Positions 1,276 to 41,103 of a stretch of 64,000 bases of DNA are shown here, in pieces; the stretch's first letter is position 1; every line of letters starts with the position of its first letter. Location of the stretch: positions 946 to 64,945 of the forward strand of contig MFYJ01000001.1 of the NCBI GenBank assembly GCA_001787755.1, in the 5' to 3' direction. This stretch comes from Candidatus Peribacteria bacterium RIFOXYB1_FULL_54_35 (lineage in GTDB: Bacteria; Patescibacteriota; Gracilibacteria; Peribacterales; Peribacteraceae). Both the position numbers and the translations under genes were made by a program. The notes under the pieces were generated by a model. The model did not search any database, was not told where the DNA came from, and was given only the letters and a program-made list of their open reading frames with translations.

Positions 1276-1292
1276 TGGTGGGCCAGGAGGGA
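1276..1292 (-). repeat. duplicate of tRNA-Tyr 3' end (att-like direct repeat)
   Basis: tggtgggccaggaggga versus tggtgggccgggaggga at 1694-1710, 16/17 identical, includes the CCA end. Confidence 0.85.
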
Positions 1293-1304
1293 CCCCTCCA
1301 CTCG

Positions 1305-1541
1305 TCATATGAGACGTTTATTCCGGAAGGCAAAACCTGATGATGACTTCAGGTACTTCTCAAAATCCAATGCTTTCTCTCTTGTCTTGAATGCTGAGTA
1401 GAAAACAAGTTCCTCTGGTTCAATGCGACTCGTTGTTGGCGAGGAATGGTTCTTATGTCTCACAAGCCTCTTTTTTAAATCTCTTGTAAACCCAATGTAG
1501 AATTGCCCATTCTTGAGTTTGAGGATGTATACAAAATACAT
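1305..1541 (-). CDS. small GIY-YIG nuclease (UPF0213/SLX1-like), 78 aa
   Basis: MYFVYIL...FYIGFT..L.KRL..H...FEKYLKS. ATG at 1541 has TATGAT 6 nt upstream. Confidence 0.9.
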   Translation of the reverse strand: MYFVYILKLKNGQFYIGFTRDLKKRLVRHKNHSSPTTSRIEPEELVFYSAFKTREKALDFEKYLKSSSGFAFRNKRLI

Positions 1542-1555
1542 AGGCAGATCATAAT

Positions 1556-1696
1556 GCCCCACTTCGCTTTGCTGCGCAAAGCTCCGCGGGGCACACTTCG
1601 CACTTTCGTAACTGGAGATGGCGCGCCACACAACTTCGCCTGCGGCTACGCGGTGTACCACGCGAAGCTCTTCGTATAGCGAAGAGCGAAGTGTGG
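1556..1696. repeat. cluster of three REP-like palindromes (CGDAG-hairpin-CGAAG core)
   Basis: 1556-1593 gccccacttcgctttgctgcgcaaagctccgcggggca; ~1629-1656 cttcgcctgcggctacg; 1657-1696 accacgcgaagctcttcgtatagcgaagagcgaagtgtgg. Confidence 0.75.
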
Positions 1697-1778
1697 TGGG
1701 CCGGGAGGGATTCGAACCCCCGAAGGCAAGGCCACCTGATTTACAGTCAGGCCCGTTTGACCACTTCGGTACCGACCC
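1694..1778 (-). tRNA. tRNA-Tyr (GTA)
   Basis: Reverse complement folds as a cloverleaf: acceptor GGGTCGG/CCGGCCC, anticodon arm CCTGA-CTGTAAA-TCAGG, long variable arm, GGTTCGAATCC, encoded CCA. Confidence 0.97.
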
Positions 1779-1867
1779 ACGTAAGCGAAAGAATCAGTGC
1801 CAATAGTGCAGAGAAGCACCATTTGACTGTTGGAGTGTACTTCCCACTCCCCTAGAATTCAATCCAC

Positions 1868-2737
1868 ATGTTCTACCTTCTTGCTGTGAGCTCCATGCTC
1901 GGCTACGCGCTCCAGAACGCACTCCTCGTGCGATATGCACGGCGTATGGACGGGCTGAGCCTGGCCTTCTACCGGAATATCTCCTTCCTCGTCACCCTCC
2001 TTCCACTCCTCTTCCTCTCTTCACCGCAGGAAATTGCCGAAGTACTCTCACACTGGAAAGTGCTCCTCATCTCCGGCATTGCCGGAGGGGTGTACCTTGC
2101 CATCGTCTTCGAGTCCTATCACTTCATTGCCATTGGTGTAGGCCACACTATCAAACAAGCAGCCATCAACATCCTCATGGCCCTCGCAGGTCTCCTGCTC
2201 TACGAAGAAGTGCTCCCTGCAATGGAATTCCTCCTCGTTGCGGTTGTCGTCCTTTCCTGCATCTGGCTTTCTATGCAGCGGGTGGATGCACCCCACATCT
2301 CGCAGAAACTCCTCCTTGGCATCTCGCTCTCTCTCCTCTCTGCTTTTCCCGTCATCATCACAAAAATCATCCTCACAGATATGAGCCGTGCAGTTGATCC
2401 TCTCGCAAGCGGCTACTTCTGGGAAGCGGCAATAGGCATTGCATCTGCCGTGACCATCCTGCTGCGATGGGTGCTCCTCCGGAGGGGACTGACACGCATC
2501 GACTCGCGTACCATGCTCGGCATCACTGCCGCGGCCTCCCCTACTCTCATCGGAACAGGATGTTATGCACTCGCTCTGAGCATGGGGCCCATCGCCATCG
2601 TGAGCGCCATAGGAAGCGGATCACTGATTGTCACGGCTCTCTGTGGCTGGCTCTGGTACCACGAGAAACTGAGCCGTTCCCAGTGGGCAGCGCTCGTGTT
2701 CATACTGGTGGCAATTGCGTGGCTGAAATTTGTGTAA
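1868..2737 (+). CDS. EamA/DMT family transporter
   Basis: 289 aa, ~10 hydrophobic segments, two-repeat DMT pattern ending in W-Y-H-E-K-L. Confidence 0.8.
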   Translation: MFYLLAVSSMLGYALQNALLVRYARRMDGLSLAFYRNISFLVTLLPLLFLSSPQEIAEVLSHWKVLLISGIAGGVYLAIVFESYHFIAIGVGHTIKQAAINILMALAGLLLYEEVLPAMEFLLVAVVVLSCIWLSMQRVDAPHISQKLLLGISLSLLSAFPVIITKIILTDMSRAVDPLASGYFWEAAIGIASAVTILLRWVLLRRGLTRIDSRTMLGITAAASPTLIGTGCYALALSMGPIAIVSAIGSGSLIVTALCGWLWYHEKLSRSQWAALVFILVAIAWLKFV

Positions 2738-2791
2738 GCGAGTAGCGGTTAGCGTGTAGCGACTAGCCGCTAATCGCTAATCGCAAGCCGT
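2735..2791. repeat. 7-nt periodic intergenic palindrome between convergent genes
   Basis: gtagcgg ttagcgt gtagcga ... ccgctaa tcgctaa tcgcaag. Confidence 0.7.
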
Positions 2792-2792
2792 T

Positions 2793-4010
2793 CTATTTAT
2801 CCCACCGTATCGCCTCCATGGGACTTAAGCTCGCAGCTTTCTTCGCAGGGACAATGCCGAAGAGGAGACCTGTCCCGAGCGCCATGAGCACTGCTGCAAG
2901 TAAAGCTGGGAAAGAGAGAACAAAGGGAACATACCCGATATACTTACTCGCTGCTGCAGCAAGGATCATTCCAAGTGTCATCCCCCCAATGATGCCGATA
3001 CTCCCGCCAACAAGCGTGAGCGTTACAGCCTCTATGAGGAACTGGAGCAGAATGTCGTGGCCACGTGCACCCACAGCCTTGCGCAACCCGATCTCCCTCG
3101 TCCGCTCCGCTACGGAGACAAGCATGATATTCATAATGCCGATGCCGCCGACGAGAAGAGAAACCCCGGCAATGAGCGCAATGAACACCGTGAGCCCGAG
3201 CGTGACCTGACCGACAATCTTCGTCGCTTGCTCAGCGGAACGGGCACGGAAATCATCTTTATCGTAGTCGTTCTCAGGATTGTCTATGCCATGGCGCTGG
3301 CGCAGAAGCAACGTGACGTCTGCAAGTGCAAGTTCGTCATCCTCTACCGCCTGCATCGTCATGTAGCTCAGCTCCTTCTGTCCTGTTGCAGAGCGCGCAG
3401 TGGTAAATGGAACAAAGACAAAGGTATCGAGATCCTGCATGAGAGCAGAACCTACACTCTGCATCACACCCACCACAGTATAGGAGCGACTCCCTATCTG
3501 CACGCGTTCACCGAGCGGACTTCTTTGGCCAAAGAGATCCTCCGCTGCCTCATACCCAAGCACTGTCACAGATCTCGCCGCTTTTTCATCGGCTTCGGAA
3601 AGGAGTCTCCCCTCCCCCAATTTGAGCCCATAGTTCGCAAAAAAGTTGGATGTCGTCCCGAATATATTTGGCGATAACTCTTCCGTTCCATACTGCACTT
3701 TCTCAGTAATAAATATTACCGGCGCAACACTCTTTACAGTGGTGAGCCCGGTTATCGCCTCGTAATCGCCGTAGGTCACGCTATCGAGCGTGCGGCCGAA
3801 TTTCTCGTAGCCTGTTGGATAGAGCTCAATGAGGTTGTTGCTGAACGATTCGACCTGATCGAGAATATAGCGCTCAAAGCTGCGCCCAACGGAGACCATG
3901 AGCACCACGGAACCGACTCCTATGATGATGCCGAGCATCGTGAGGAGTGATCGCATTCTGTGAGCGACAATTGCCCTGTGAGCCGTTTGGATGGTGTCGC
4001 GAAGGAGCAT
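2793..4010 (-). CDS. MacB-family ABC transporter permease
   Basis: RSLLTMLGIIIGV and GGIGIMNIMLVSVAERTREIGLRKAVGA motifs. Confidence 0.95.
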   Translation of the reverse strand: MLLRDTIQTAHRAIVAHRMRSLLTMLGIIIGVGSVVLMVSVGRSFERYILDQVESFSNNLIELYPTGYEKFGRTLDSVTYGDYEAITGLTTVKSVAPVIFITEKVQYGTEELSPNIFGTTSNFFANYGLKLGEGRLLSEADEKAARSVTVLGYEAAEDLFGQRSPLGERVQIGSRSYTVVGVMQSVGSALMQDLDTFVFVPFTTARSATGQKELSYMTMQAVEDDELALADVTLLLRQRHGIDNPENDYDKDDFRARSAEQATKIVGQVTLGLTVFIALIAGVSLLVGGIGIMNIMLVSVAERTREIGLRKAVGARGHDILLQFLIEAVTLTLVGGSIGIIGGMTLGMILAAAASKYIGYVPFVLSFPALLAAVLMALGTGLLFGIVPAKKAASLSPMEAIRWDK

Positions 4011-5239
4011 TATTCGTACCGGAGTGCGTTCATGGGAGAGAGCTTGGAAGCCTGTCTTGCCGGGTAGATGCCAAACACAAGCCCTGTGAGAATCGCCATG
4101 GCGAGAGCAAGCCCAATGGCAGGAACCGAAAGCGCAAAGTCATAACTCTCGAGGTATTTGTCCACAATCAATGCTGCCAGACCGGCGAGGCCGACACCGA
4201 AGACAACACCAGCGATGCCGGCAAACAGGGTGAGGAGAATCGCTTCGAAGAGGAACTGGAGAAGAATATCCCTCCCTCGTGCTCCCACGGCCTTCCGGAG
4301 GCCTATCTCACGGGTACGCTCGGTCACCGCAACCAGCATGATGTTCATGATGCCGATGCCGCCGACGACCAGAGAGATGCCCGCAATAGTGGTAATGAAC
4401 AGTGTGAGACCCAATGACACCGCACCAAGAATATCATTCGCTTGCTGCGACGTGCGGACGATAAAGTCGTCTTCGTCCGTATCTCCTTCCGGGTTCACAA
4501 TGCCATGCCTCTGGCGAAGCAGGGACTCCACATCTGCTTGCGCGAGATCAAAATCTCCCACTGCCTGGAGTGTGATGACATTCACATGCTTCTGACCCGT
4601 TACGGCACGTCCCGTGGTGAGCGGAATGAAAACAAACTCATCCGCATTCTGGAAGAACTGCGTCCCAACCGGTTCCAGTACCCCCACCACGGTATACTGC
4701 AGATCTCCCAGCCTTACCTGCTTGCCGACCGGATCTTCCAGCCCAAAGAGATCATCTGCGATATCGGAACCGAGTACCACAACGTGCCGCGCGCGCATGA
4801 TGTCCCGTTCTTCCAGAACACGGCCGACTGCAACCGGCATCTCACGGTTCTGAAAATACGGCGGCGTCGTTGCAATGACACGGGGTTGCGTCTTCTCTCT
4901 GCCATAGACAGCGGTGGGGATATCCACAAAAATCGCCGGCGCAACACTCGTGATGGTTGTGAGCCGTTCCAACGCCTCGACATCATCAAATGTAAGGCTG
5001 TCGAACCCCGCGGCGAGCGTGCTTTCCACTCCTTCTTTCTGCCCAGGGAACACCACCATGCTCTGCGCACCTATGGAGCTGATCTGACTGAGTATGAGCA
5101 CCTCCATACTTGCACCGACCGCTGTCATGAGTACCACGGAACTCACACCGATGATGACCCCAAGCATCGTGAGCATAGAACGTTTCCTGTTGACGCCGAT
5201 CGCTCTACGGGCCGTCGCGAATGTGTCTGTGATGAACAT
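4010..5239 (-). CDS. MacB-family ABC transporter permease (paralog)
   Basis: Same MacB/FtsX motifs (GGIGIMNIMLVAVTERTREIGLRKAVGA). Confidence 0.95.
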   Translation of the reverse strand: MFITDTFATARRAIGVNRKRSMLTMLGVIIGVSSVVLMTAVGASMEVLILSQISSIGAQSMVVFPGQKEGVESTLAAGFDSLTFDDVEALERLTTITSVAPAIFVDIPTAVYGREKTQPRVIATTPPYFQNREMPVAVGRVLEERDIMRARHVVVLGSDIADDLFGLEDPVGKQVRLGDLQYTVVGVLEPVGTQFFQNADEFVFIPLTTGRAVTGQKHVNVITLQAVGDFDLAQADVESLLRQRHGIVNPEGDTDEDDFIVRTSQQANDILGAVSLGLTLFITTIAGISLVVGGIGIMNIMLVAVTERTREIGLRKAVGARGRDILLQFLFEAILLTLFAGIAGVVFGVGLAGLAALIVDKYLESYDFALSVPAIGLALAMAILTGLVFGIYPARQASKLSPMNALRYE

Positions 5240-5241
5240 GG

Positions 5242-5982
5242 CTACTTGAGGTGTTTCACATTCTTGGCGTGGTTCCTCTTGAAATCACGCGTGTCGGTCG
5301 CAATGCGCCCATCAAGAATGTGAATGACGCGCTCGGCATACTCTGCAGTCGTCTTTTCATGCGTGACGAGAACGATGGTTCTCCCCTGCTTGCTGTGGAG
5401 ATTTTGCAGGACCTCCATCACCTGAATGCCGGAGGCGCTGTCCAAGTTTCCCGTCGGTTCATCCGCGAAGATGACATCCGGCTCGGTGACGAGTGAACGG
5501 GCAATGGCTGTGCGCTGCTGCTGGCCGCCGGAGAGCTGGTTGGTGAAGTAGGTGGCGCGCTCTGTGAGACCGACTTGCTCAATGGCTTTCATCCCTCTCT
5601 CCGTGCGCTCAGATGCAGGAATGGTCGGGTGATAGAGCAGTGGAAGAATGACGTTATCCAACACAGTCGTGCGGGGGAGCAGGTTGAATGCCTGGAATAC
5701 GAAACTCACGCGCGTCGCGCGGATGCGGGCAAGCTCGTCATCGTGGAGCACACGCGTCTTCTGGCCGCGGAAGAGGTACGAACCGGAAGTGGGAGTATCC
5801 AGGAATCCGAGAATGTGCATGAGCGTGGATTTGCCCGATCCGGAAGGCCCCATGATGGAAATGAACTCTCCCTCGCGGATCGTGAGATCAATGTCAAAGA
5901 GCACCGGCGTTTCCATCCCATCATTGAAGTACGACTTGCAGAGATCAACAGTCTCGATCAGCGGTGGATTCTGCTTTGCCAT
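5242..5982 (-). CDS. ABC transporter ATP-binding protein (MacB/LolD type)
   Basis: Walker [10 protein letters not shown], signature [17 protein letters not shown]. Likely start MAKQ at 5982. Confidence 0.95.
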
Positions 5983-6019
5983 AGGTTGAGACTGAATGAT
6001 AAATTGAAAATTCCATTTC

Positions 6020-7777
6020 CTATTCTTTAATGAGGATAACCACTTTCTCCCCTTCTTCCACCCCACTGATGACTTCCACGTCGGTATCGGACTCCATGCC
6101 GACAACAACAGTGCGCTCCTCTATCTCATCTCCCCCATGGAGAATGCGGACGATATTCTGCCCCAGCGCATTCTTGATGACAGAACGTCCCGGCACCATC
6201 GTCACCTCCTTCTGAACCCCGGTGATGATCTCCACGTCACCCGTCATGCCAATCTTCAGGTTTTTCTCTTCGTCCTCAAGGAAATCGAGCTTGATACGGT
6301 ACTTCGGCACTCCATCGACTAAGGTGGCAGCAGGATCAATTTCTGTCACCTGCAGGAGAAAGTCACGGCCGGGGTAAGCATCGAGTTCCACGCCCCCTTC
6401 CTGCTCGTACTGCACTTTGGGAATGTCGATCTCGGAAACGAACATTTCCACGCGGTACGGACTGTCCCCGAGCATGGTAATCGCACGGTTGAAGTCCTCG
6501 AAATCCCCGGTAAATTCTCCGGCCTTCAGGTTCACCTTGGTGATGCGCCCGGCGATGGGAGCCTTGAGAACGGTATCATCCAGTCTTGCATGCGCGTAGC
6601 GGACCCCTGCGTACGCTCTGTTTGCCGCTGCTCTTGCAGCATCGATATCCGCCTGCCGAGCACCGGCTTTCTTCAGCGCCAGCTGGGCCTCCTGCACGCG
6701 CAGCGACGTCTCGTACGTCGCAATATCTGCCAGTGCTTTATCCTTGGTTCCCTGTGCGGTCGCGAATGCGGATTCCTCCGTTGCAATCTGCGTGCTGAAA
6801 TTCGCAGAGGCATCCCGGGTGGCCTTGAGCTGATCCTCTATGTCATTGAGGGCACTCTGGATGCTATTCCTCTCGCCGGCAAAAGAATCCTTGTACGTCT
6901 CCTTTGTTGCAGTAGTGAGATAGTTGGAAGTAGGCAGGGAGACCATGATGGTATACGCATCATCCGCTGCAGCAACAGCGTGCAAAGCAGCCTCCCGCGC
7001 TGTTCCCAAGTTCAAAAGCGCCTCTTCGAAATCTGCTGGCCTGCTCCCAAGAAGTGCATCCGCAATGGCCACACCCGTTTCCTCACGCTTGCGCACGTAC
7101 ACCTCATACTCAATGCGGGACCGGAATTCCACCGCATTCTTGATGACGGTGGTATCGAAGTAGTCGTCGAGTTCATTGAGGGAATTCTCAATATCAGTGA
7201 GCTCCTGGGAAATGGTGCTGCCTGCAGTGGAGACATAGCCACTGAGACTGGTCTCCGCCTCGCGGTGCAACTGATCAAGCTCACCCTGAGACCGCCCGAG
7301 ACTCCGCTCGGCATTCTCCAATGTGGCGCGCGCTGCTGCGAGAGCCGCCCGCTTGTTTTCTACTTCCGCTTCCGCGATTGCGATTTCCTCCGGACGCGTT
7401 CCCTCTTCAAGTGCCCGCAGATCTGCGAGAGCGGCCTGGTAACTAGCAGAAGCAGACGAACGGTCAGCCTCCAGGCTGTTATTGCGCAGTTCTGCAAGCA
7501 CCTGATCTGCTTCCACGGTATCACCCTCTTTCACATAGACCTCCTCCACTACCCCGGTGACAGGAAACTTCAGCTCCAAATCTTTCTCGGAGATCACCGT
7601 GCCCACTGCCTCCACTGACTGAATGAGATCCCCTCTCACAGCCTCAGCTGTGATGTACTCCGGCTTCTCCGGTGCGAACAGGAAAAATCCAAGCGCAATG
7701 AACGGGAGCAGGATAATGGCAAGGAGGAGGAGCAGCTTCCAGCGCCTCCGCACAAACTTCCAGACAGCATGGCACAC
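6020..7777 (-). CDS. efflux periplasmic adaptor (MacA/HlyD-like) with long coiled coil
   Basis: N-terminal TM, lipoyl halves (GVVEEVYVKEGDTV, LKAPIAGRI), C-terminal VEVISGVEEGEKVV. Start uncertain. Confidence 0.9.
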   Translation of the reverse strand: MCHAVWKFVRRRWKLLLLLAIILLPFIALGFFLFAPEKPEYITAEAVRGDLIQSVEAVGTVISEKDLELKFPVTGVVEEVYVKEGDTVEADQVLAELRNNSLEADRSSASASYQAALADLRALEEGTRPEEIAIAEAEVENKRAALAAARATLENAERSLGRSQGELDQLHREAETSLSGYVSTAGSTISQELTDIENSLNELDDYFDTTVIKNAVEFRSRIEYEVYVRKREETGVAIADALLGSRPADFEEALLNLGTAREAALHAVAAADDAYTIMVSLPTSNYLTTATKETYKDSFAGERNSIQSALNDIEDQLKATRDASANFSTQIATEESAFATAQGTKDKALADIATYETSLRVQEAQLALKKAGARQADIDAARAAANRAYAGVRYAHARLDDTVLKAPIAGRITKVNLKAGEFTGDFEDFNRAITMLGDSPYRVEMFVSEIDIPKVQYEQEGGVELDAYPGRDFLLQVTEIDPAATLVDGVPKYRIKLDFLEDEEKNLKIGMTGDVEIITGVQKEVTMVPGRSVIKNALGQNIVRILHGGDEIEERTVVVGMESDTDVEVISGVEEGEKVVILIKE

Positions 7778-7894
7778 TATCTTCCAGGGAATACTTCTGA
7801 TGAGAGTGAGAGAATTCTTCAGGTTGCGTTGAAATGGGAATGTTTAGGTATACTAAATCATTCTATTTTACCACAAAACAAATATCCCATCAAT

Positions 7895-8746
7895 TTATGA
7901 CTTCAGCCCTGCAACTGCAGAAAGAGCCTCCTTCACCGCTGTCTCCACAGGACGCATTTTGATGCCTTCGGAAAGAAGCTTTTCATTGGTGAGCACACAA
8001 TTGCTGCGCCCGGCTTTCGCCACCTGAGAGAGCTCTCCGAGCGTGAGACGCTCAAACGTGTGCCTCGGATCCACGAGTTCCCTATAGAGCTCCATAATTC
8101 TGTACGGCGATATCACCCCAGGATTCACCACATGGTACATACCCGTTTTCCGCCTTTCTATGAGCACCTTCGCCGCAGCGAAGAAATCTGGCAGATATGT
8201 GAGAGAATTTTCTGTGCCGAGCACGCGGGAATACTTCGTGAGTTTGGAAATGAGATTGCGTTCATGCAGGGAACCATCAAACGGCATGCGGAGCCGGAGA
8301 ATGAGCACCCCTCCGGTGCCGTCGGGGCCGGCGGGAAATTCCCTGAGAATCTCGTCGCACGCCGCTTTTGTCCGCGAGTAGAAGCTGCCTCGGAAGTTCG
8401 GAGCATCCTCCTCCGAAAAACCCTTTCCCCCGTTATCCCCCTGGTACACGCACCCTGAACCCAAATGCACCCAGTAGATGCCTCGCTTAGCACACTCGTC
8501 CAGCAATACGAGCGGCCCTGTGATATTCGCACGCACCGTTTCCTCCTTGTGATCCTCACACCAGTCGATATTCGGACGTCCCGTTTTCCCTGCAGCATTG
8601 ATGACAACATCGGGCTTCTCAGCATCCAATGCCACCGCAACCGCATTGCAGTCTGCGATATCGACTGGAGGAGCCACTGCATTGGGGAAAAGCCTGAGGA
8701 ACTCCTGGCCCATGTAGCCCTTTCCACCAAAGACGAGGATTTTCAT
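7895..8746 (-). CDS. NDP-4-keto-6-deoxyglucose epimerase/reductase (RmlD-like SDR, NRS/ER type)
   Basis: GGKGYMG Rossmann motif, GKTGRPNIDWCE, catalytic YSRTK. Confidence 0.85.
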   Translation of the reverse strand: MKILVFGGKGYMGQEFLRLFPNAVAPPVDIADCNAVAVALDAEKPDVVINAAGKTGRPNIDWCEDHKEETVRANITGPLVLLDECAKRGIYWVHLGSGCVYQGDNGGKGFSEEDAPNFRGSFYSRTKAACDEILREFPAGPDGTGGVLILRLRMPFDGSLHERNLISKLTKYSRVLGTENSLTYLPDFFAAAKVLIERRKTGMYHVVNPGVISPYRIMELYRELVDPRHTFERLTLGELSQVAKAGRSNCVLTNEKLLSEGIKMRPVETAVKEALSAVAGLKS

Positions 8747-8816
8747 AGCACGGCATATGGTAGCCGAGAGAGAAGAGAACCTCTAGTCAGATGGAAGACC
8801 TTCTGAATCAGGGAAG

Positions 8817-8883
8817 TTCATTCGCTCGTTTACTCGTTGGCTCGTTCCAACGAGGAACGAGTGCACGAGTAAACGAGCAAACG
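8817..8883. repeat. 8-nt periodic intergenic palindrome
   Basis: gctcgttt actcgttg gctcgttc ... gaacgagt gcacgagt aaacgagc. Confidence 0.75.
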
Positions 8884-8942
8884 TCCGTACCTTGCGAAAA
8901 ACTGGATTTTTCATTCCAACCGTACTGCGATATACTACGCCT

Positions 8943-11198: not shown

Positions 11199-11205
11199 TG
11201 TTTTC

Positions 11206-11330
11206 TAGAGAACCTCTGGAAAATACGAAAGCATGTCATGGTGAGCACTGTCGAACCACGACATGCATCAAATCGTCGCAGTTCGTCAGAGCTCACTGTG
11301 ACAATTTGGGTGTTTTCCAGAGGTTCCCTA
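11206..11330. mobile_element. MITE-like element with 21-bp terminal inverted repeats, TA ends and internal palindromes
   Basis: tagagaacctctggaaaatac (11206-11226) versus gtgttttccagaggttcccta (11310-11330), 19/21 complementary. Confidence 0.65.
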
Positions 11331-11375
11331 CACTAACAGTGAATCTTTCACCGCTTTCGATGGTACAATTTTCCC

Positions 11376-11969: not shown

Positions 11970-12047
11970 GGTTTATGAACCTCGGCAACGGAGTAATATG
12001 GAACACGAAAATTAGGTAAGCTATCTGAACCATTTCCTGCCAATTCT

Positions 12048-12458: not shown

Positions 12459-12513
12459 AACATACCCACATAATTGCATCCAGACTTTCTCTCTGGCTTC
12501 TAATGCCGAAATG

Positions 12514-29953: not shown

Positions 29954-30041
29954 TTTGAGGGAGGTAAATACTTTATGTTTTAGAAAGAACATAAATCTCA
30001 CATTTGGGTTACAATCTTAGTATTGTTTCCCTTTTTTAGTG

Positions 30042-30851: not shown

Positions 30852-30863
30852 GAGGCATTAAGA

Positions 30864-30908
30864 TCAATTCCTCTGAATCACAATTCTGTCTTCAATCTCC
30901 TGATCAAC
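30864..30908 (-). pseudogene. diverged duplicate of the 3' end of the adjacent ATPase gene
   Basis: Encodes VDQEIEDRIVIQRN* versus VDQEIEDRIGIQRS* at 30982-31026. Confidence 0.8.
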
Positions 30909-30960
30909 CCTTCGACAGGCTCCAGCCTCCGCGCTTCGTGCTTCGGCCGACAGGCAGGGT
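30908..30960. repeat. nested REP-like palindromes
   Basis: cccttcgacaggct|ccagcctccgcgcttcgtgcttcggccgacagg|cagggt. Confidence 0.75.
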
Positions 30961-30981
30961 AAACTTCTTCCCTGTCTGCTT

Positions 30982-33603: not shown

Positions 33604-33686
33604 GAAGCGAGAGAAGGGTTAGGAGAACGATACCAAGAATTCCGTGTATTGTAGCATATTTTCGGTTCTAAAGGTAGTACTTCAGC

Positions 33687-34727
33687 CTACTCACTGCTGC
33701 AGGAAGACACTTGCATGGTCATTTCTCTTCTCCGTCCTTCCTGTGTCCCGAAAATAAAACGGTACTCACCGCTCATGGAAGGAACGAAGCGAAACCGCTC
33801 CTCCGGGCCCACAAAATCCTGTATCCGCACCGTGTGCCCATCCGGGTAGGTAATACTTCGCACAACAAAGTAGCGGTTGGAGCCGAGATAGACCGAATCT
33901 CCAAGTGAGAGTGTATGGGGTAATCCCCTGTGGAAGCGCACATCACGCGTAATACGGCGCTGGTATGCCCGGGGCTTATCGGAACACTCATCCACCAGTT
34001 CCTTGTCGCCTAACCGACGGAATGTTGCCTGTATGACCCCGCGGGATATGGGAGATATTCTCTCGAACGCTGCTCTGCTCAGATCCATATCCCGGCCGTC
34101 TACATAGGGGCCACGGTCATTGATACGCACGACCACGCTCTTCTGATTCTCCAGATTTGTGACCTGTACAAGCGTGTCCTGCGGGAAACTGCGGTGCGCC
34201 GCTGTGAGCGCTTCCATATCGAACGTTTCCCCAAATGCGGTGCCCTGGCCGTGAAAATCATCTGCATAGAAACTCACAGAATGGACTTCCTCATTGAGGA
34301 ATGTATCGAGCGAGCGCATGAAGTCGAGCAGTTGCTCCCTGCTCTCTATGAAAGCATCTCCTCTGCGCTGCGCGATCGGATATTTCGCGAGCAGCCTGTC
34401 AAGATCGGACCGCTCAATATCCGGTCGTTCCTCCACATTGCGTGACCGGAAAAGCCACAGGAGAGCATCTTCCTGCGAGAGAGGATCTCCGGGACGAAAG
34501 AGCGTTTCTTCATCAAAAAATTTGCGGTCTTTTGCGTACGTAATTTCCAGATACCCCTCCACATCTTCCCTCACATCCTCGAATGGCACGGAACTTACTT
34601 CGTATGCAGGCCTGCGAATGGATTCCCACAACAGCAGAAACCCATCGCGACGGCTGAGGGGGCTGCTCGCCAGAGCAGAAAATGGAAGGGCACACAGAAG
34701 GAAAAGAAATATGATATTTCTCAACAT
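33687..34727 (-). CDS. RlpA-like lytic transglycosylase (DPBB) with degenerate SLH N-terminus
   Basis: Signal peptide; [38 protein letters not shown]. Confidence 0.85.
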
Positions 34728-34766
34728 AAACAGAGTGCATTCTCAGAGAAAGAAGAGCAATTGACT

Positions 34767-36125
34767 TTAGAGAGCCTGCCATCCCGTGGCACGCACAAGC
34801 TGATAGAGCTCCTTCCTCTCCTCCCTCTGGAGAGTGGAAAGTGTTGCCGGACCCACTACCCCCGCACCATGGCTTGCAGGTGAAGAGATGATCCCGCGGG
34901 AAAGCTGAAACTGCTGAACAGCACTCTTGGTCAGCGGCCCGAAATTGCCATTGATCTTCTCGATCGGGAAAAGACCGCGATCGGCCAGGAGAGACTGCAG
35001 TATGCGAACCTGTCTCCCGTTATCCCCTTCTGAAAGGAACTGCTCCACTGCAAGATCGTGCTCGTCAAGATATTTTCCGGCTTCATGGAGTACGAGAAGC
35101 TTCTGCGCCCGCTCCCGAACGAGAGCACGATCCCACGCCGCGCGGATCTGCTTCAGAGTGAGTGGTCCTATGCGACCTGCACCAGGATCTTCTTCGGTCC
35201 CGACGAGCGCACTATCCTTCTGAAACTGCAGGATTGCTTCTGCAAGCGTGCCGTTATAGATGCCATCTGTCCGGCCACGGTAGTACCCGATGTACCGGAG
35301 AATGCGCTGCGCTTCACGCACCGTCTCTGCATCGCTCTCCCCGTCAACAAAACCTCCTATCGGACCCTCCACCCCCTTACGATGTTCGGCAGAGAGCACA
35401 AACGCCGCCGTGGTGGGGGTGAGTTCATCTGCAGGTTCAGAGAGGCGATAGTCCTGGAGAAAACGCGCGAGAGACTGCTCTGTTACTTCTCCAAAAAGAC
35501 CTGAAGCTGCATCGCGGAAATACCCGAGTTCCTTGAGTTTTTCCTGGAGTATTTTCACCGAGAGACTCTGATCGTTCCTCCGTGCTCGCACTGAAAGCAG
35601 ATTGCGGTTCTCCAGCCTGTACTCTTCCAACCGTGAGAGTGGAGCAGGCAGATCATCGAGAGCCACAGCCGTCTGTGGCTGATGGAAACCCGGCGGATAC
35701 ACCGTGCCAACAAAATACTGCGCTCCGAAGGCAAGTGCCCGGGCGAGTCCTTCCTCCCCATAGCCTGCCCACACGTCCAAACGATGCACACCATTGTCTC
35801 CCTCCTGTATCGCTCCACCGCGATCATGTACTGAAAGTACACCAATGCCAGGAAGCGCAACCTTGGTTCCGAAGGAGTAGCTCGGCGGGGCAGCAAGCAT
35901 TCCCGGATACACCTGCGTACCATCGGCAGCCTTCACGCCCTCGCCATTGAGCACCTTGTCTGCCTCATACCCTCCACGCACATAGCAACACTGATCCGGC
36001 AGCGGGGAGTAGTACGCTGTGACGAGGAATGTCTGCTCGTATGGCTCACGGTTGCTCCCCGCCCGTACCGGGTACAGGAACACCAGCAATGCAACCGCTA
36101 TGAAGATACGTTTTGGGATGAACAT
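34767..36125 (-). CDS. 3D-domain protein with peptidoglycan-binding repeats
   Basis: VTAYYS...AAP...DRGGAI...LDVW; repeated V..LQ..L...G..G.FG..T..A...FQ. Confidence 0.85.
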   Translation of the reverse strand: MFIPKRIFIAVALLVFLYPVRAGSNREPYEQTFLVTAYYSPLPDQCCYVRGGYEADKVLNGEGVKAADGTQVYPGMLAAPPSYSFGTKVALPGIGVLSVHDRGGAIQEGDNGVHRLDVWAGYGEEGLARALAFGAQYFVGTVYPPGFHQPQTAVALDDLPAPLSRLEEYRLENRNLLSVRARRNDQSLSVKILQEKLKELGYFRDAASGLFGEVTEQSLARFLQDYRLSEPADELTPTTAAFVLSAEHRKGVEGPIGGFVDGESDAETVREAQRILRYIGYYRGRTDGIYNGTLAEAILQFQKDSALVGTEEDPGAGRIGPLTLKQIRAAWDRALVRERAQKLLVLHEAGKYLDEHDLAVEQFLSEGDNGRQVRILQSLLADRGLFPIEKINGNFGPLTKSAVQQFQLSRGIISSPASHGAGVVGPATLSTLQREERKELYQLVRATGWQAL

Positions 36126-36201
36126 ATTTGTATTGGTTTCGTTCTATTATATCAAAAATCCTGTTTTCGTTCTGTGACACAAGAATGACAAAATATCCTA
36201 T

Positions 36202-37224
36202 TCAATTCCTTAATAGCATTTGTGAATATTCCTTCACAAGCACCTCCTCCTCGAGTCGCATGCCAAACTCCCCCTTAAAATAGACACCAGGTTCGATAGT
36301 GATGATTTCGCCTGCCCGGAGTATTTCTTCCGGAGCTCGAACCGAAATCCGGGCACCTTCGTGAATCTCCAGACCCACACCGTGCCCGAGCGAGTGAGAG
36401 AACTTCTTCTCGAAGCCATACTTCCGGAGTATTTTTCGGGCAGCACCATCCAGATCGTGCGTAGATACCCCCGCCCGAACGAGCTTCATAGCTGCAACCT
36501 TTGCCTCAGAGACGGCATGGAACGCGCGCTCCTGCTTCTGCGTCTTTCGCCCTGTGAAGAAAACCATGCTCTGATCGGCACAGTAGCCCTTGTACCGCGC
36601 ACCAACATCAATCTGGACAATGTTCCCCCTCCGGAAAACCCGGTCTGTTGGCTGATGATGCGGCCGGCTCGTGTGCGTACCGAAAGCAATGATAGGATCG
36701 AACGAGAGTGAATCTGCTCCGAGACACACCGCCCATTCCCCCAATTTCCAGGCAAGCTGCTTCTCAGTGATTCCCTGCCGGAGAGATTGTGGAATCCTCC
36801 GGAGCAGCTCCCGGGTTATCTTCTGGGCCCGGCGGAATTTCCGGATTTCTTCCGGATCTTTCGTGCGGCGAAACCCCTCGACAATCCCCTCCTTTTGAAC
36901 AAATTTTGTGTTCTTAAATTTGCGCTTCCACCTGCGCAGTTGCCCAAGAGTCACCGTTTCCGATTCACACCCGCAGCACTGGACCCTGGCCAAAACAGAT
37001 GTCATCCGACCCACATCCCGAACATCCACTCCCCTCCCCGCCTCTTCCTTCGCAGCTTCACTGTACCTCCCATCAACAAAAAGCGTGAAACGCCGAGGGG
37101 TGACGAGGAGGAAACCCGCACTCACTTCCACCCCGGTGAGATACCGGATATTCGTGAGCGCAGAGACCAGAAACGCCGAAACTCCTGCCGCGTTGAGAAG
37201 TTGCTGGGGCGAGGAGGGATACAT
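36202..37224 (-). CDS. Xaa-Pro peptidase (M24 family)
   Basis: IDVGARYKGYCAD, HSLGHGVGLEIHE, TIEPGVY, GMRLEE. Confidence 0.93.
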   Translation of the reverse strand: MYPSSPQQLLNAAGVSAFLVSALTNIRYLTGVEVSAGFLLVTPRRFTLFVDGRYSEAAKEEAGRGVDVRDVGRMTSVLARVQCCGCESETVTLGQLRRWKRKFKNTKFVQKEGIVEGFRRTKDPEEIRKFRRAQKITRELLRRIPQSLRQGITEKQLAWKLGEWAVCLGADSLSFDPIIAFGTHTSRPHHQPTDRVFRRGNIVQIDVGARYKGYCADQSMVFFTGRKTQKQERAFHAVSEAKVAAMKLVRAGVSTHDLDGAARKILRKYGFEKKFSHSLGHGVGLEIHEGARISVRAPEEILRAGEIITIEPGVYFKGEFGMRLEEEVLVKEYSQMLLRN

Positions 37225-37288
37225 GCACCAAGAGTAGCCTCAAAGAGATATTTGTGCTATCATAGAGTGATCTGTACCCTCTTTGCAG

Positions 37289-37654
37289 ATGAAACACTTC
37301 TTTCCCTTTCTCTCCAAAACCACTGCAGCTCTCACAGCCGCTCTCAGCGCTGCCACAGCATATGCTGCTCAGTACACCGGCGGGGGTCTGAACGCCGGTG
37401 CAGGTGACGCGGGCACCATTGTCGGAAGTACCGACATTCGCACCACTGTCATCAACATCGTAAAGGAAGTGCTCTCCTACATGGCACTTGCGGCCGTCGT
37501 CGTCATCGTCATAGCCGGCATCCTCATGGTTGTGAGCGCCGGGAACGAGGAAAGCAAAGAACGGGCAAAGCGCATCATCCTCTACACATTTGCAGGTCTC
37601 ATTATCATTCTCCTCGCGCAAGGGCTCGTGCAGATAATGGTGAACCTGAGTTAA
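37289..37654 (+). CDS. VirB2/TrbC-like (CPR T4SS-type) pilin
   Basis: Signal peptide, then two TM helices joined by SAGNEESKERAKRII...AGLIII. Confidence 0.8.
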   Translation: MKHFFPFLSKTTAALTAALSAATAYAAQYTGGGLNAGAGDAGTIVGSTDIRTTVINIVKEVLSYMALAAVVVIVIAGILMVVSAGNEESKERAKRIILYTFAGLIIILLAQGLVQIMVNLS

Positions 37655-37682
37655 CAGCCAACAGCGCACAACCTCTCCCGTC

Positions 37683-40439
37683 ATGCCTCGTTTTGTTCCT
37701 CCCCACGGGTTTGTTCTCAGCACTCTGGCACTCCTCCTGCTCAGTCATCCTGCACACATCAGTGCACAGAGAGCAGAGGAAATTATTGCCTTGCGGCCAG
37801 GAGGAATTTTCGAGATCTATGCTGACACCGTCACACCTGATCCAAAAATCAGCTGGGTATTCAGCAAAGGAAGCACGTTCGTCCAGGCTGACAGAGGACC
37901 TCTGTTTAGTATCCGTCCAACGGAGGAAGGGGAGTACTTCCTCACGGGGGAAGTTGCTGATGCACAAGACACCCCGCTCCGAAAGCTTTTTAAAATCCAG
38001 ATGCGGGCAGACGCGCCCATCATCTCTCAGTCAGACACGGAAGGCGATACGCTCGTGCGTGTCTCTCCTACGCCGAATGAAACAAACATGTCCATCCTGA
38101 GAGGCGAACAGCGTGTCGTACGACTCGACATCATTCATCCGGATATCGAACAGCTGGCTCTCGACATTAATGCGGAGAAGGACCAAAGCAACGACGGTGA
38201 TCCCTTCAATGACAATATTCTCACGAACAGCGTCTTTAAGTCAGGACGCGGCAGCTTGCACATCTGGCTGACTCCCAGAATGCTGAACCAAACGTTCCTA
38301 TTGGTTGCACGGCTCAAAACTGGAGCGCTGGTTACGCAGAAAATTCAGGTGATCTCAGAAGACTACGAAGAAATACTGAAACAGAAAATAGAGCAGGAAG
38401 AGCAGGCGCGGAGAGACCGTACGACTATCGAATCGAAACTTGTTGGCGAACGGACATACCGACTCTCAGTCGATGCGGAGGATGGAGTGATAACAGAGAC
38501 AGTGTTTCACCATTGGGATTTCGGTGACGGCACCCAAAGTCTGATGGATGAACCGGAACATCAATTTCCCGAATCCCGCATGTACCAGGTGCGCGTTTCA
38601 GTGCGTGACGCCTATACAGGAAAAGAGATCCTTCTGGTACAGAAACCCTTTGAAGTTTCTGAGGGCACCATGCCAGAAATAACAGAACAAACACCTGGGA
38701 AAGAAGCAATGAATCCGGAAGCCGTTCAGGAATCAGCGAAGCAAACGAGCTACATTGTCGCAACAGTAATCAAGGCTCTCGTCATTCTCGCCATCTCGAT
38801 AGGCATTGGGATTCTCGCTGTGTTTCTGTTTGCAAAAATGAAAGGAAAATCCCTGCAGAAGTCGTTCGAAGAGGCTGAAAAGAAACTTGTGAAAGAACCT
38901 GGCACACGTACTCCGCCTCTGCAACTTGAAAAGCAAGAGGAGGAGAAAAAAGAGGAAGAAGACGAGAGGGAAAAGGAGAAAGAAAAAGAAAAGGCCCCGC
39001 TCGAAACCCCGGAGATCAACAGACAGGTCCCGAGCTGGCTTGCACCTTCGCCGCAAATAAGCAAAGCAGGAGAGAAAGGAGGAAAAGCTCCCTTAGATAC
39101 CTCTGTCCCCCCTCCCCCACCTCCTCCTCCTATTGCACAAAAAACTACAACCTCAGAGCACATACCCGGTACGTCGCAATCTGCAGTATCCGGAGGGCAG
39201 GGTGTACCGCAGGCAGCCGCACAGACTCCCACAGGCGGAGCTCCTGTCCCTCCATGGCTTCAGGGAGCAGTGACAACACCTGCAAAAGCTGCGCAACCTC
39301 TTTCTTCGGAGACACCACAAACAAGACCCACCGCCTCAGAACAAAAGACCACACCCACTTCGACAGGAACTGCAACTCCCCCCTGGTTAGTGGGAGCACA
39401 GACTCTTGAGGAACGTCACAAAGGAAGCACTCCCACAGAACCTGCATCTGCATCCCCTGCCACCCCCAAAACAGAACTACCCGCCCCTGCAAAAAATGAA
39501 GCATCTGTTCCACCCTGGCTGCAACAGACGCCAACTCCACCGCCCCCTGCCGCTGCAGAGCAGAAGATGAGAGCCACCACACCTCCTCCTGCACCATCAA
39601 TACAACATGCGGAGAACACTCCTCCATGGCTGCAGGGAGCAGGAGTAAAAACCACCACTCCTGCAACAAACACCCCCAGAAACCAAGGTGGGACGAGCGC
39701 AACAGGTAATATCTCAGCACAAAAAAATCAGACTGGCGCAAATACAGGAAGCACATCCCAACCCCCACTCCCTCCAACAACAAACCAAACCAGTGACGCA
39801 ATACAAGTGCAGCAAGCAGCAGATAGTGCAGCAGCAGAAAGCACACACTCGAAAGAAGAACGCGAACGGGAGCGCAAGCGCCGCAAACGTCAGCGGTACC
39901 GCGCGAACAAGCGCACACGAGAGCAAGAGGGGGAACAGACACAAGTACAGGCTGCACCTGCACCCACGGAATCCCCCGCAGTAAAGGATGCTCCCCCGCC
40001 GAAGAAGGAAACGCAGACACCACCATGGCTGCAGCACACACCTCCTTCTTCGAAACAAACACAGGAAACAATACCGCCACCGTCACCTCCCGCACCCCCC
40101 GCGCAGAGAGAGAATGCATCTGTCCCCCCCTGGCTGCAGGGAGTGCAGGCACAGAGCACTCAGAAACCACCTGCTAATTTCCCTCCGTCTGAGACCCCTC
40201 CTGCAACCAAGTCCACTCCTCTCCCACCTCCACCTCCCCAGGGAAATGCCCCCATTCCTGAATGGCTCAAGGGAACGAGCGCACCAACACCCCCTCCTCC
40301 GACTCAGCAACCAATACAACAAACCGGAAGTGATGATGATGTGAAGTTCGTGATCAGTGCGGACAGCGTGGAGGGGCAGCCTCCCCAGCCACATACACCG
40401 GGAGATGCGATTCCGCCTGCAGAGAAACAGGGAGAATAG
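37683..40439 (+). CDS. PKD-domain membrane protein with long Pro/Thr/Gln-rich tail
   Basis: Signal peptide, WDFGDG PKD motif, single TM, low-complexity tail with 8 PxWL motifs. Confidence 0.85.
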   Translation: MPRFVPPHGFVLSTLALLLLSHPAHISAQRAEEIIALRPGGIFEIYADTVTPDPKISWVFSKGSTFVQADRGPLFSIRPTEEGEYFLTGEVADAQDTPLRKLFKIQMRADAPIISQSDTEGDTLVRVSPTPNETNMSILRGEQRVVRLDIIHPDIEQLALDINAEKDQSNDGDPFNDNILTNSVFKSGRGSLHIWLTPRMLNQTFLLVARLKTGALVTQKIQVISEDYEEILKQKIEQEEQARRDRTTIESKLVGERTYRLSVDAEDGVITETVFHHWDFGDGTQSLMDEPEHQFPESRMYQVRVSVRDAYTGKEILLVQKPFEVSEGTMPEITEQTPGKEAMNPEAVQESAKQTSYIVATVIKALVILAISIGIGILAVFLFAKMKGKSLQKSFEEAEKKLVKEPGTRTPPLQLEKQEEEKKEEEDEREKEKEKEKAPLETPEINRQVPSWLAPSPQISKAGEKGGKAPLDTSVPPPPPPPPIAQKTTTSEHIPGTSQSAVSGGQGVPQAAAQTPTGGAPVPPWLQGAVTTPAKAAQPLSSETPQTRPTASEQKTTPTSTGTATPPWLVGAQTLEERHKGSTPTEPASASPATPKTELPAPAKNEASVPPWLQQTPTPPPPAAAEQKMRATTPPPAPSIQHAENTPPWLQGAGVKTTTPATNTPRNQGGTSATGNISAQKNQTGANTGSTSQPPLPPTTNQTSDAIQVQQAADSAAAESTHSKEERERERKRRKRQRYRANKRTREQEGEQTQVQAAPAPTESPAVKDAPPPKKETQTPPWLQHTPPSSKQTQETIPPPSPPAPPAQRENASVPPWLQGVQAQSTQKPPANFPPSETPPATKSTPLPPPPPQGNAPIPEWLKGTSAPTPPPPTQQPIQQTGSDDDVKFVISADSVEGQPPQPHTPGDAIPPAEKQGE

Positions 40440-40484
40440 TTGGCAGAGCGGTGTGTTGCATTTACTATTGCGCCCGCTACAACG

Positions 40485-40505
40485 TGGCGAGCTTAGCTCA
40501 GTTGG
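40485..40505 (+). repeat. duplicate of tRNA-His 5' end
   Basis: tggcgagcttagctcagttgg identical to 40579-40599. Confidence 0.9.
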
Positions 40506-40579
40506 CCTAGTCCCGCGCAGCGGGACGTGATAAAAAGAGGCCGCTCGGTGAAAATCGCCACAATCTCTTTCACACTTAT

Positions 40580-40657
40580 GGCGAGCTTAGCTCAGTTGGT
40601 TAGAGCGGATGGTTGTGGTCCATCAGGTCAAGGGTTCGATCCCCTTAGCTCGCCCCA
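40580..40657 (+). tRNA. tRNA-His (GTG)
   Basis: G-1:C73, acceptor GCGAGCT/AGCTCGC, anticodon arm GATGG-TTGTGGT-CCATC, T arm AAGGG-TTCGATC-CCCTT, CCA. Confidence 0.97.
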
Positions 40658-41082
40658 TCCGTCTTCGCGGTGTGAGGGCTACGAAGTTCCGTTCGTTGTT
40701 CCCGTAATGATCATAGCGATACCGCTTCGACGCGATTGGGGCTTGTGTTATAGTTCGACACTATGCATTACGTCTACATTCTCGAGTCTGCACTCGATGG
40801 CAGGCACTGGTACATCGGCGTAACAAGCAACCTACAGAAACGCCTGGAAGAACATAATGCGGGTGATTCTCTGCACACGAACAAATTCAAACCATGGAAA
40901 CTGAAGAGCTACACAGCCTTTACTACACGAGAACAAGCTGAAAAATTTGAGCGGTACCTGAAATCCAATTCAGGACGCGTGTTCGCAAAAAGGCACTTGT
41001 GAGCCGCGGCGTAGCGGTATCGCAAAGCTGGACCCAAGAATGATGGCATACGCATCAAATGCCCTCACGCCGCGAAGCCGGG
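40658..41082 (+). mobile_element. GIY-YIG cassette bounded by nested inverted repeats
   Basis: Outer IR 40658-40679/41061-41082 (19/22); inner IR 40716-40734/41005-41023 (17/19); flanked by 21-bp direct repeats. Confidence 0.7.
40763..41002 (+). CDS. small GIY-YIG nuclease (UPF0213/SLX1-like), 79 aa
   Basis: MHYVYIL...WYIGVT.NL.KRL.EHN.G...FERYLKS; extended -10 TGtTATAGT 8 nt upstream. Confidence 0.93.
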   Translation: MHYVYILESALDGRHWYIGVTSNLQKRLEEHNAGDSLHTNKFKPWKLKSYTAFTTREQAEKFERYLKSNSGRVFAKRHL

Positions 41083-41103
41083 CGATCCCCTTAGCTCGCC
41101 CCA
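41083..41103 (+). repeat. duplicate of tRNA-His 3' end
   Basis: cgatccccttagctcgcccca identical to 40637-40657. Confidence 0.92.

Follow-up and report, generated by a model that had tools for sequence, protein, structure and literature searches.

Small GIY-YIG nuclease genes docked behind tRNA 3' ends: candidate homing-like cassettes in Peribacteria and other bacteria

A 64,000-nucleotide (nt) stretch of the genome of Candidatus Peribacteria bacterium RIFOXYB1_FULL_54_35, hereafter the window (genome G000, contig C1, positions 946-64945; assembly of 1.56 Mb, 16 contigs, 97.85% complete), contains two tRNA genes only, tRNA-Tyr and tRNA-His, as detected by ARAGORN. Each is followed by a short cassette with a palindromic element, a co-oriented gene for a stand-alone GIY-YIG nuclease of about 80 amino acids (aa) and a copy of the tRNA 3' end. 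Cassettes with such a nuclease gene are enriched behind tRNA genes in other genomes, are present or absent at one and the same site, have switched their partner tRNAs, lie in blocks of abruptly raised identity between congeners and contain no recombinase genes. We lean towards the view that these loci are widespread selfish, homing-like cassettes, in which a minimal Slx1/UPF0213-type GIY-YIG nuclease spreads with the tRNA as portable homology. That the nuclease itself makes the break, where it cuts, and a role of the hairpins as target, in immunity or in expression control are parts of this view that we infer. In kind, the cassettes would be free-standing homing-type nuclease genes; in the literature searched, supplements and subscription journals aside, no account was found of small GIY-YIG genes docked behind bacterial tRNA genes.

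Anatomy of the two cassettes and their nucleases

The first-pass annotation of this DNA had described the same order at both tRNAs, namely tRNA, palindromes, a co-oriented GIY-YIG gene of about 80 codons and a 3'-end copy, and this order as well as the repeat-to-repeat spacings of 418 nt (Tyr) and 446 nt (His) were reproduced (Table 1). The Tyr direct repeat extends from the last base of the T-loop through the CCA and lies 12 nt past the nuclease stop codon. In the His cassette two inverted repeats are nested around the open reading frame (ORF), an outer pair (40659-40679 with 41061-41081; 21 nt, 90%) and an inner pair (40716-40734 with 41005-41023; 19 nt, 89%). The Tyr cassette has five hairpin pairs between tRNA and ORF, some of which pair with the tRNA's own ACCA end, the first stem taking this end in, and it has no right-hand inverted-repeat arm. 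Of the two cassettes, only that at His combines 21-nt arms with a 21-nt direct repeat; a target-site duplication of 17-21 nt would be unusually long for a transposon. An own -10 box had been assigned to both nuclease genes. It was recovered for the His ORF, where a promoter-like site with an extended -10 (40727-40754) ends 8 nt before the ATG, whereas the promoter scan found no such site on the coding strand before the Tyr ORF. The described layout was also incomplete, as a 21-nt copy of the tRNA-His 5' end upstream of the gene (40485-40505) had been overlooked. No integrase or recombinase gene was found inside the two cassettes, and Rfam recognized tRNAs only in the window.

Both proteins match the GIY-YIG family PF01541 with 60.7 and 63.6 bits (curated cut-off 22.6), and they are, as had been proposed, related but diverged, with 46% identity (36/79). 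In a 15-sequence alignment (A1) the residues Y5, Y17, G19, R27, H31 and E63 are invariant, and for this reason the nucleases look active as judged from their sequences; the conserved Tyr, Tyr, Arg, His and Glu positions are those which we take to be catalytic. A profile search of the PDB returned 1zg2 (E 6.5e-20) and 1ywl (E 3.5e-14) as nearest solved relatives, followed by SLX1 chains (E 3.6e-9); by sequence similarity the window nucleases belong to the minimal Slx1/UPF0213 stand-alone branch. They consist of the GIY-YIG domain alone (78 and 79 aa, without extension), and a separate DNA-binding domain was not found in the two ORFs, which end at 78-79 aa and show no second domain in Pfam. With the NCBIfam model for group I intron endonucleases the Tyr-cassette protein gave a sub-cut-off match limited to residues 3-38 and the His-cassette protein gave no match; PADLOC yielded nothing meaningful for defence systems with either nuclease. 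Prokaryotic stand-alone Slx1-like proteins were treated as a minimal form of the superfamily in a 2006 survey (PMC1564403), and stand-alone GIY-YIG proteins were described as the minimal domain form (PMC7017083); the pertinent passages of these two sources give no function, genomic rule, tRNA docking or hairpin element for them.

Table 1. Coordinates of the two cassettes in the window and of nuclease-free inserts elsewhere in genome G000 (given as contig:position)
Feature	Position	Strand	Evidence
Cassette 1: tRNA-Tyr (GTA), docking site	1694-1778	-	ARAGORN; Rfam tRNA 60 bits
Cassette 1: structured palindromic element, CCA to ATG, several hairpins	1542-1693	-	inverted repeats I1-I5
Cassette 1: hairpin resembling the conserved ATG-proximal one	1556-1593	-	genome hairpin scan
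Cassette 1: further palindromic repeat unit	1628-1657	-	genome hairpin scan
Cassette 1: stand-alone GIY-YIG nuclease gene, 78 aa	1305-1541	-	ORF; PF01541 E 1.7e-16
Cassette 1: tRNA-Tyr 3'-end direct repeat, right boundary	1276-1292	-	17 nt, 94% vs 1694-1710
Cassette 2: tRNA-His 5'-end copy, up to D-loop, 94 nt upstream of the real gene	40485-40505	+	21 nt, 100% vs 40579-40599
Cassette 2: insert between 5' fragment and tRNA-His; GC hairpin, then the sequence immediately preceding the tRNA gene	40506-40578	+	sequence inspection
Cassette 2: tRNA-His (GTG), docking site	40581-40657	+	ARAGORN; Rfam tRNA 65 bits
Cassette 2: palindromic element, left half, from first base past CCA	40658-40762	+	inverted repeats I1, I2
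Cassette 2: stand-alone GIY-YIG nuclease gene, 79 aa, within the palindrome	40763-41002	+	ORF; PF01541 E 2.1e-17
Cassette 2: palindromic element, right half (inner arm 41005-41023, outer arm 41061-41081)	41003-41082	+	inverted repeats I1, I2
Cassette 2: tRNA-His 3'-end direct repeat, T-loop to CCA, right boundary	41083-41103	+	21 nt, 100% vs 40637-40657
Nuclease-free insert, tRNA-Val(gac)	C7:173080		
Nuclease-free insert, tRNA-Pro(ggg)	C7:188733		
Nuclease-free insert, tRNA-Asp	C11:103119		
Nuclease-free insert, tRNA-Thr(tgt)	C11:169302		
Nuclease-free inserts, tRNA-Glu(ctc), two in tandem	C12:44736		
Nuclease-free insert, tRNA-Leu(tag)	C11:216985		

Distribution behind tRNA genes and evidence for movement

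In the source genome PF01541 matches 14 places, of which 12 are small ORFs; the other two are a weak hit within a 173-aa frame and a hit in an 803-aa frame that is presumably UvrC. Eight of the 12 small ORFs begin shortly behind a tRNA of the same orientation, at a distance of 7-244 nt (Tyr, His, Pro(cgg), Lys(ttt), Gly(ccc), Gln(ttg), Ala(ggc) and Arg(cct)); by our own arithmetic, the zone of 400 nt behind a tRNA, counted on its own strand, occupies about 0.6% of this genome. The small proteins fall into several diverged subfamilies, and one copy is truncated (C9:39528).

With the His nuclease as query, 21 related genomes, the source genome included, were searched; 11 gave matches and 10 gave none. 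Across the relatives G001-G014, 20 of 27 loci have the end of a co-oriented tRNA no more than about 360 nt upstream (partners His, Thr, Leu, Tyr, Cys, Gln, Ser, Phe, Gly, Glu and Ile). A wider scan with a narrower alignment (A2), restricted to one genome per species, yielded 562 relatives, and the best 80 loci, which are the top matches to one subfamily and stem from 11 named phyla, were analyzed. The window's nearest relatives among them belong to Candidatus Peribacteraceae / Peregrinibacteria. A co-oriented tRNA ends 66-489 nt upstream at 58 of the 80 loci; where at least 300 nt of upstream sequence are available, the count is 56 of 71. Five further loci are docked to a co-oriented tmRNA ending 131-544 nt upstream (L077, L113, L127, L133 and L139; Acidobacteriota, Cloacimonadota and Nitrospirota), and two loci carry two nuclease genes in tandem (L133 and L144). 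The orientation of the cassette is always that of the tRNA. The predicted enrichment of tRNA adjacency in other genomes was thus borne out, with tmRNA as an additional partner.

Up to two longest ORFs downstream of each of these 80 loci were inspected, and among the resulting 131 ORFs one was integrase-like (about 1.4 kb from its cassette, at one of the 80 loci), none was a transposase and most were housekeeping genes. A larger integrase-bearing island in relatives, of which the cassettes would be decayed remnants, had been named as a finding that would speak against small mobile units; this one ORF is all of the kind among the 131. The whole source genome encodes one tyrosine recombinase and two large serine recombinases, all away from the cassettes. 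The serine recombinase genes (C7:150665-151108 and C13:248-688) adjoin tRNA-Lys(ctt) and tRNA-Gln(ctg) in opposite orientation, have similar C-terminal regions and probably mark true integrative elements at tRNA genes. For the Y1 (RAYT-type) transposase PF01797 there was no match in this 97.85% complete genome, and the earlier statement had been that a RAYT transposase is missing from the cassettes.

Empty and occupied sites could be compared in Thalassospira, where 37 genomes were searched and a tandem tRNA-Gln locus was read in 16. Eleven of these loci are empty, with a spacer of 78-81 nt between the two tRNA copies; three contain one cassette lineage (497-513 nt) and two contain another (662 and 1036 nt). 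All inserts begin at the first base past the CCA, and the native spacer is replaced and not split, for which gene conversion is a better explanation than insertion. Two of the occupied genomes (G021 and G048) have allele A in the upstream tRNA copy and allele B in the downstream one, whereas both copies carry the same allele in the other 14 genomes; the chimeric state fits co-conversion of the tRNA with the cassette. In G048 a second hairpin element follows tRNA copy 2, and the match to the nuclease gene behind it covers only its first ~128 nt. Empty sites, which the first-pass annotation had proposed to look for, thus occur in one genus. Small mobile units that dock at tRNA 3' ends and bring no integrase or transposase themselves are supported by this polymorphism, by the identity jump described below and by the near-absence of integrases downstream (one ORF of 131). 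As to the supposed insertion of the cassette by host repair, the Thalassospira alleles fit gene conversion on tRNA homology better than cut-and-paste.

The partner tRNA changes at least 36 times on a nuclease tree with 57 labelled rows (79 alignment columns, 41 of 76 inner branches unresolved), compared with a mean of 45.3 and a minimum of 40 changes in 500 shuffles of the partner labels. Sixteen Peregrinibacteria rows alone use eight isoacceptors, and phylum labels change 18 times on the same tree, the possible minimum being 10. Partner tRNAs differ even between nucleases that are close to each other. The source genome and its congener G003 agree at 100% over 354 nt of the Tyr cassette (1276-1629), while the aligned tRNA-side flank is 86% identical; the His block is 99.3% identical over 605 nt (40499-41103), with flanks of 83% and 91-94%. 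Both high-identity blocks end at the direct repeat. Within the source genome, a copy of the Gln(ttg) cassette with 89% identity over 413 nt is located at the start of contig C9. Within the window's genus the comparison of empty and occupied sites gave no base-level boundaries, since the flanks are merely ~70-75% identical.

Several side observations concern the same loci. The tRNA-Thr(cgt) gene is inverted relative to its flanking genes between the source genome (L152, C11:4700-7800) and congener G001 (L027), and the G001 copy has a nuclease cassette whereas the G000 copy has none; the tRNA may travel with the cassette. Contigs of four groundwater sequencing runs contained no joint across the cassette when compared with window positions 39900-41900; loose ends at the tRNA-His 3' end continue elsewhere, may belong to other organisms and were not used as evidence. 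Behind the His cassette of G003 (L052 2802-4113) an extra AT-rich insert of 1.3 kb follows a 90-nt repeat made of the tRNA 3' end and 70 nt. It encodes a 245-aa MerR-type helix-turn-helix protein (PADLOC mad1, N-terminus only, E 1.6e-12) and a 92-aa protein with a weak match to STAS-like DUF4325, and may represent defence-type cargo stacked at the same tRNA.

Hairpin elements and partial tRNA copies

In nearly all loci the stretch between tRNA and ATG comprises two modules. A long hairpin starts at the first base past the CCA or, where the CCA is not encoded, directly past the acceptor end, and a short hairpin lies 1-60 nt before the ATG in most loci. In many loci the latter ends only 1-6 nt before the ATG, which leaves no space for a ribosome-binding site. 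With a loose pattern the ATG-proximal hairpin was detected at 62 of 80 loci; two earlier detectors, which were too strict or faulty, had given 7/80 and 13/78 and were replaced by this pattern and a covariance model. In a 30-sequence alignment of the short hairpin 97% of cells are paired and seven of nine pairs show compensatory changes. None of 500 shuffles reached the observed values and slid controls paired at 14-39%; alignment and structure were both chosen by the analysts, which favours the result, but the compensatory changes are plain in the rows. This one hairpin of the element accordingly appears to covary strongly. An ORF between the palindrome halves, and not behind them, is seen in the His cassette and its two nearest relatives (L073 and L074).

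The source genome contains 61 similar hairpins, 17 of them within 400 nt of a tRNA and five near a nuclease gene, as found by a genome hairpin scan. The covariance model matched 4-39 times in each of the 11 relatives in which the nuclease subfamily was hit, and 0-1 times in seven of the ten relatives in which it was not. The three exceptions (8-12 matches) carry one to about six other small GIY-YIG genes, whereas G004 and G010 each have one small GIY-YIG gene and yet 0-1 hairpin matches. Because the compared genomes are related to one another, and as the hairpin model is short and its E-values are rough, the link between hairpin copy number and nuclease genes is only a hint.

The duplicate of the tRNA end, presented by the first-pass annotation as part of the layout, is present in both window cassettes and proved to be neither constant nor specific for the nuclease. 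In the source genome a copy of the final 18 nt of the tRNA (at most three mismatches, within 1.5 kb downstream) accompanies 15 of 45 tRNAs: five of the eight that have a nuclease gene and 10 of the 37 that have none. Among the 58 tRNA loci of the wide scan a duplicate (16 nt, at most one mismatch, within 1.2 kb downstream) was found in six, against none of 58 in an upstream control.

Nuclease-free duplicates lie 96-178 nt behind the tRNA in the source genome, at the end of short inserts of 96-180 nt (Table 1). At least seven of these duplicates are preceded by a recurrent module, in which 6-8 nt complementary to the start of the duplicate are followed by a conserved motif and a hairpin. The same module closes the 1134-nt unit of the Gln(ttg) cassette (C7:236859-236890), which holds an extra ORF on the reverse strand. 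Inspected by eye, the complementary stretch covaries with the tRNA, two T-loop bases included, in four of four cases. The module could be a selected hairpin, could stem from an insertion in the T-loop of an incomplete tRNA copy, or could result from fold-back repair. A hammerhead-like ribozyme was considered for the short inserts and rejected, as the core motif misfits and Rfam is silent. In ten short-insert loci and eight cassette loci Rfam gave only tRNA or tRNA-like matches, apart from sub-threshold hits to sX4, a small RNA of Xanthomonas (36 and 28 bits against a cut-off of 70; L114 636-821 and L119 2280-2427); no Rfam family corresponds to the hairpin element. The sX4 hits span tRNA-Ser and the hairpin element, and the annotated sX4 may be transcribed from a related element that trails a tRNA.

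Copies of the tRNA 5' end occur upstream of five of the 45 tRNAs. At tRNA-His, Ser(tga) (C4:53620), Arg(tct) (C7:367345) and Thr(ggt) (C14:111415) they extend to the D-loop, lie 94-99 nt upstream with a GC hairpin motif in between and mirror the 3' duplicates; at Thr(ggt) the sequence preceding the tRNA is duplicated as well. A tRNA-Met gene (C7:115619-115694) is followed by a second copy (C7:115440-115618) in which the part from D-arm to anticodon stem is replaced by ~57 nt of hairpin-rich sequence, and which looks like a broken tandem duplicate. A second dispersed repeat of the genome has the core CCTGAGC, then ~4 nt or a hairpin, then CGAAGG (99 pattern matches); its short complementary flanks differ between copies, an odd trait in a simple mobile repeat.

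In the window itself, low-GC DNA (positions 1-1275; 41.7% in the first 2 kb versus ~54% elsewhere) borders directly on the Tyr direct repeat. No counterpart exists in G003, whose contig runs on for ~0.9 kb, and the stretch may be a further insertion at the Tyr site; the ORF at 574-1179 within it has no Pfam match. Just upstream of tRNA-His, an ORF of 918 aa (37683-40439) has a signal-like N-terminus and a long Pro/Thr/Gln-rich region with a repeated PPWLQ-type motif.

Possible mechanisms and comparison with known systems

In the homing-like process that we favour, the nuclease would break a tRNA gene without a cassette, in or beside it, most probably in the region from T-loop to CCA, because the duplicates start in the T-loop. 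The break would then be repaired by copying from an occupied tRNA gene, and as tRNA genes are nearly invariant, the tRNA itself would supply the homology. Where a second tRNA copy or a homologous flank is available, a clean replacement would result, as at the tandem tRNA-Gln of Thalassospira. Where homology exists on the left only, the far side would be joined illegitimately and the 3' piece of the resident tRNA would remain as a direct repeat, which would account both for repeats that start in the T-loop and for their not being universal. The hairpin element, which begins right past the tRNA 3' end, can pair with that end. Parker, Belisle and Belfort reportedly found in 1999 that illegitimate one-sided repair in phage T4 intron homing duplicated exon sequence.

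A number of points weigh against this process. Cleavage and transfer by the nuclease are a proposal drawn from sequence comparison. A protein of 78-79 aa without a DNA-binding domain is not readily seen to find a site, and its nearest solved relatives are structure-specific, not site-specific. The occupied allele keeps an intact tRNA, so that the process does not by itself account for an immunity of occupied sites. In several Peribacteria loci the recurrent hairpin module stands before the duplicate, contrary to a random illegitimate join, and ten tRNAs of the source genome have a duplicate without a nuclease gene, while outside the window's lineage duplicates are rare (6/58). The 80 loci are the top matches to one subfamily, related genomes are not independent samples, and the nuclease tree is short and poorly resolved. 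Finally, G000 and G003 are metagenome assemblies, so that a chimeric contig is conceivable, and chimeric assembly at the repeats could mimic the identity jump.

The main rival holds that the hairpins are mobile in the manner of REP/REPIN sequences, the GIY-YIG enzyme acting as an analogue of RAYT which cuts folded single-stranded or cruciform hairpins and tRNA-like structures and so spreads the hairpins together with its own gene; the tRNA 3' end would be the preferred target because it folds. That the hairpin element is kept beside the gene across phyla agrees with this, as do the transposon-like placement of the His gene inside a nested palindrome flanked by a 21-nt direct repeat, the dispersal of 61 hairpins (17 near tRNAs, five near nuclease genes), the parallel between hairpin counts and nuclease genes in the relatives (three hairpin-rich exceptions with other small GIY-YIG genes included), the structure-specific Slx1 nucleases as nearest solved relatives and the lack of a Y1 transposase match in the source genome. 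However, G004 and G010 break the parallel, which in any case comes from non-independent genomes and a short model with rough E-values; 12 nuclease copies contrast with the usual single RAYT; the Thalassospira spacer is replaced, not split; and we know of no GIY-YIG enzyme that rejoins DNA. We regard this explanation as unlikely. A bolder formulation envisages a transposase-free class of elements across phyla, in which a bare GIY-YIG protein of 80 aa recognizes the folded 3' minihelix of tRNA or tmRNA and its own CCA-anchored hairpin, and thereby drives its own spread and the dispersal of the hairpins; it is tentative and we would rather doubt it than not. The earlier proposal of a selfish element with a RAYT-like nuclease is, taken as a whole, partly supported.

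Two further explanations rank lower. Integrase elements in tRNA and tmRNA genes classically leave direct repeats that run from the T-loop to the CCA, and the duplicates could be scars of recombinase-driven elements, with the cassettes as leftovers or as hitch-hiking cargo moved in trans. The docking to tmRNA, the recombinase genes of the source genome (two large serine recombinases beside tRNAs, one tyrosine recombinase), the extra low-GC cargo behind the cassettes at the G003 His locus and at Gln(ttg), and the one locus in 80 with an integrase-like ORF all speak for such an origin. We nevertheless consider it improbable, given that 130 of 131 downstream ORFs are not recombinases, that the cassettes measure only 320-450 nt, that the layout extends over 11 named phyla with differing recombinase repertoires, that 52 of 58 loci have no duplicate and that two cassette lineages in Thalassospira begin at the same base. 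A host function of the nuclease in tRNA-linked DNA or RNA metabolism, co-transcribed with the tRNA and with the hairpins as a processing or regulatory leader, would be consistent with the constant orientation, with hairpins that end so close to the ATG that a ribosome-binding site finds no space, and with stem covariation as in functional RNAs. Such a role is hardly to be expected of up to 12 diverged copies in a 1.56-Mb genome, one of them truncated (C9:39528), and of genes that vary in presence within one genus, switch partner tRNAs and, as a subfamily, gave no match in 10 of 21 related genomes with the query used; the second gene of G048, matched over its first ~128 nt, is a further point. 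A host function appears equally improbable.

If the homing-like view is correct, stand-alone Slx1/UPF0213-type GIY-YIG proteins, which are common in bacteria and have no assigned role, would gain one, and the rule of tRNA or tmRNA docking together with the structured element provides a testable function for one UPF0213/Slx1 branch. It would also mean that tRNA-end duplicates and tRNA-linked hairpins need not stem from integrases, and that a minimal selfish element can use a universally conserved RNA gene both as target and as portable homology. Should the bolder formulation hold, the cassettes would be the counterpart of REP/RAYT with a GIY-YIG enzyme and, in small genomes, a general source of partial tRNA duplicates. 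As Thalassospira genomes offer occupied and empty alleles, at least one of these genomes being the complete chromosome of a named strain (L098), these ideas can be tested outside the lineages of the candidate phyla radiation.

Among known systems, REP/REPIN-RAYT likewise has dispersed short GC-rich hairpins that also flank a small nuclease gene without other mobility genes, but the enzyme here is of the GIY-YIG and not the HUH type, the elements are anchored on tRNA 3' ends and many enzyme copies occur per genome. Integrase islands use tRNA and tmRNA targets too and likewise leave direct repeats that begin in the T-loop and take in the tRNA 3' part; unlike them, the cassettes have no integrase in or beside them, measure 0.3-1.1 kb and mostly lack the repeat. 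Among solved structures, the UPF0213/Slx1-like proteins BH0048 and EF2693 (E. coli YhbQ family) match the window nucleases best in sequence, and tRNA docking and a hairpin element are absent from the available parts of their descriptions. With homing endonucleases of the I-TevI/Seg type the cassettes have in common presence and absence at one conserved site with chimeric tRNA alleles. SegB of phage T4 is a member of the phage I-TevI/Seg branch with a distinct part for DNA binding, whereas the proteins described here comprise the catalytic domain only (78-79 aa), are nearest to UPF0213 and Slx1, and are encoded in chromosomal cassettes of many bacterial phyla that lie always directly behind a tRNA 3' end and include a conserved hairpin element. 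SegB is described as a GIY-YIG homing endonuclease encoded in a cluster of tRNA genes, with a recognition site that takes in the conserved T-psi-C stem-loop motif; break repair carries it to new sites, and neighbouring tRNA genes are inherited along with it (PMC2330249). The cassettes resemble SegB as so described in having a GIY-YIG gene among tRNA genes and outside any intron, in duplicates that start in the T-loop and in Thalassospira tRNA alleles that look co-converted, and by this analogy T4 SegB appears to be the closest working precedent.

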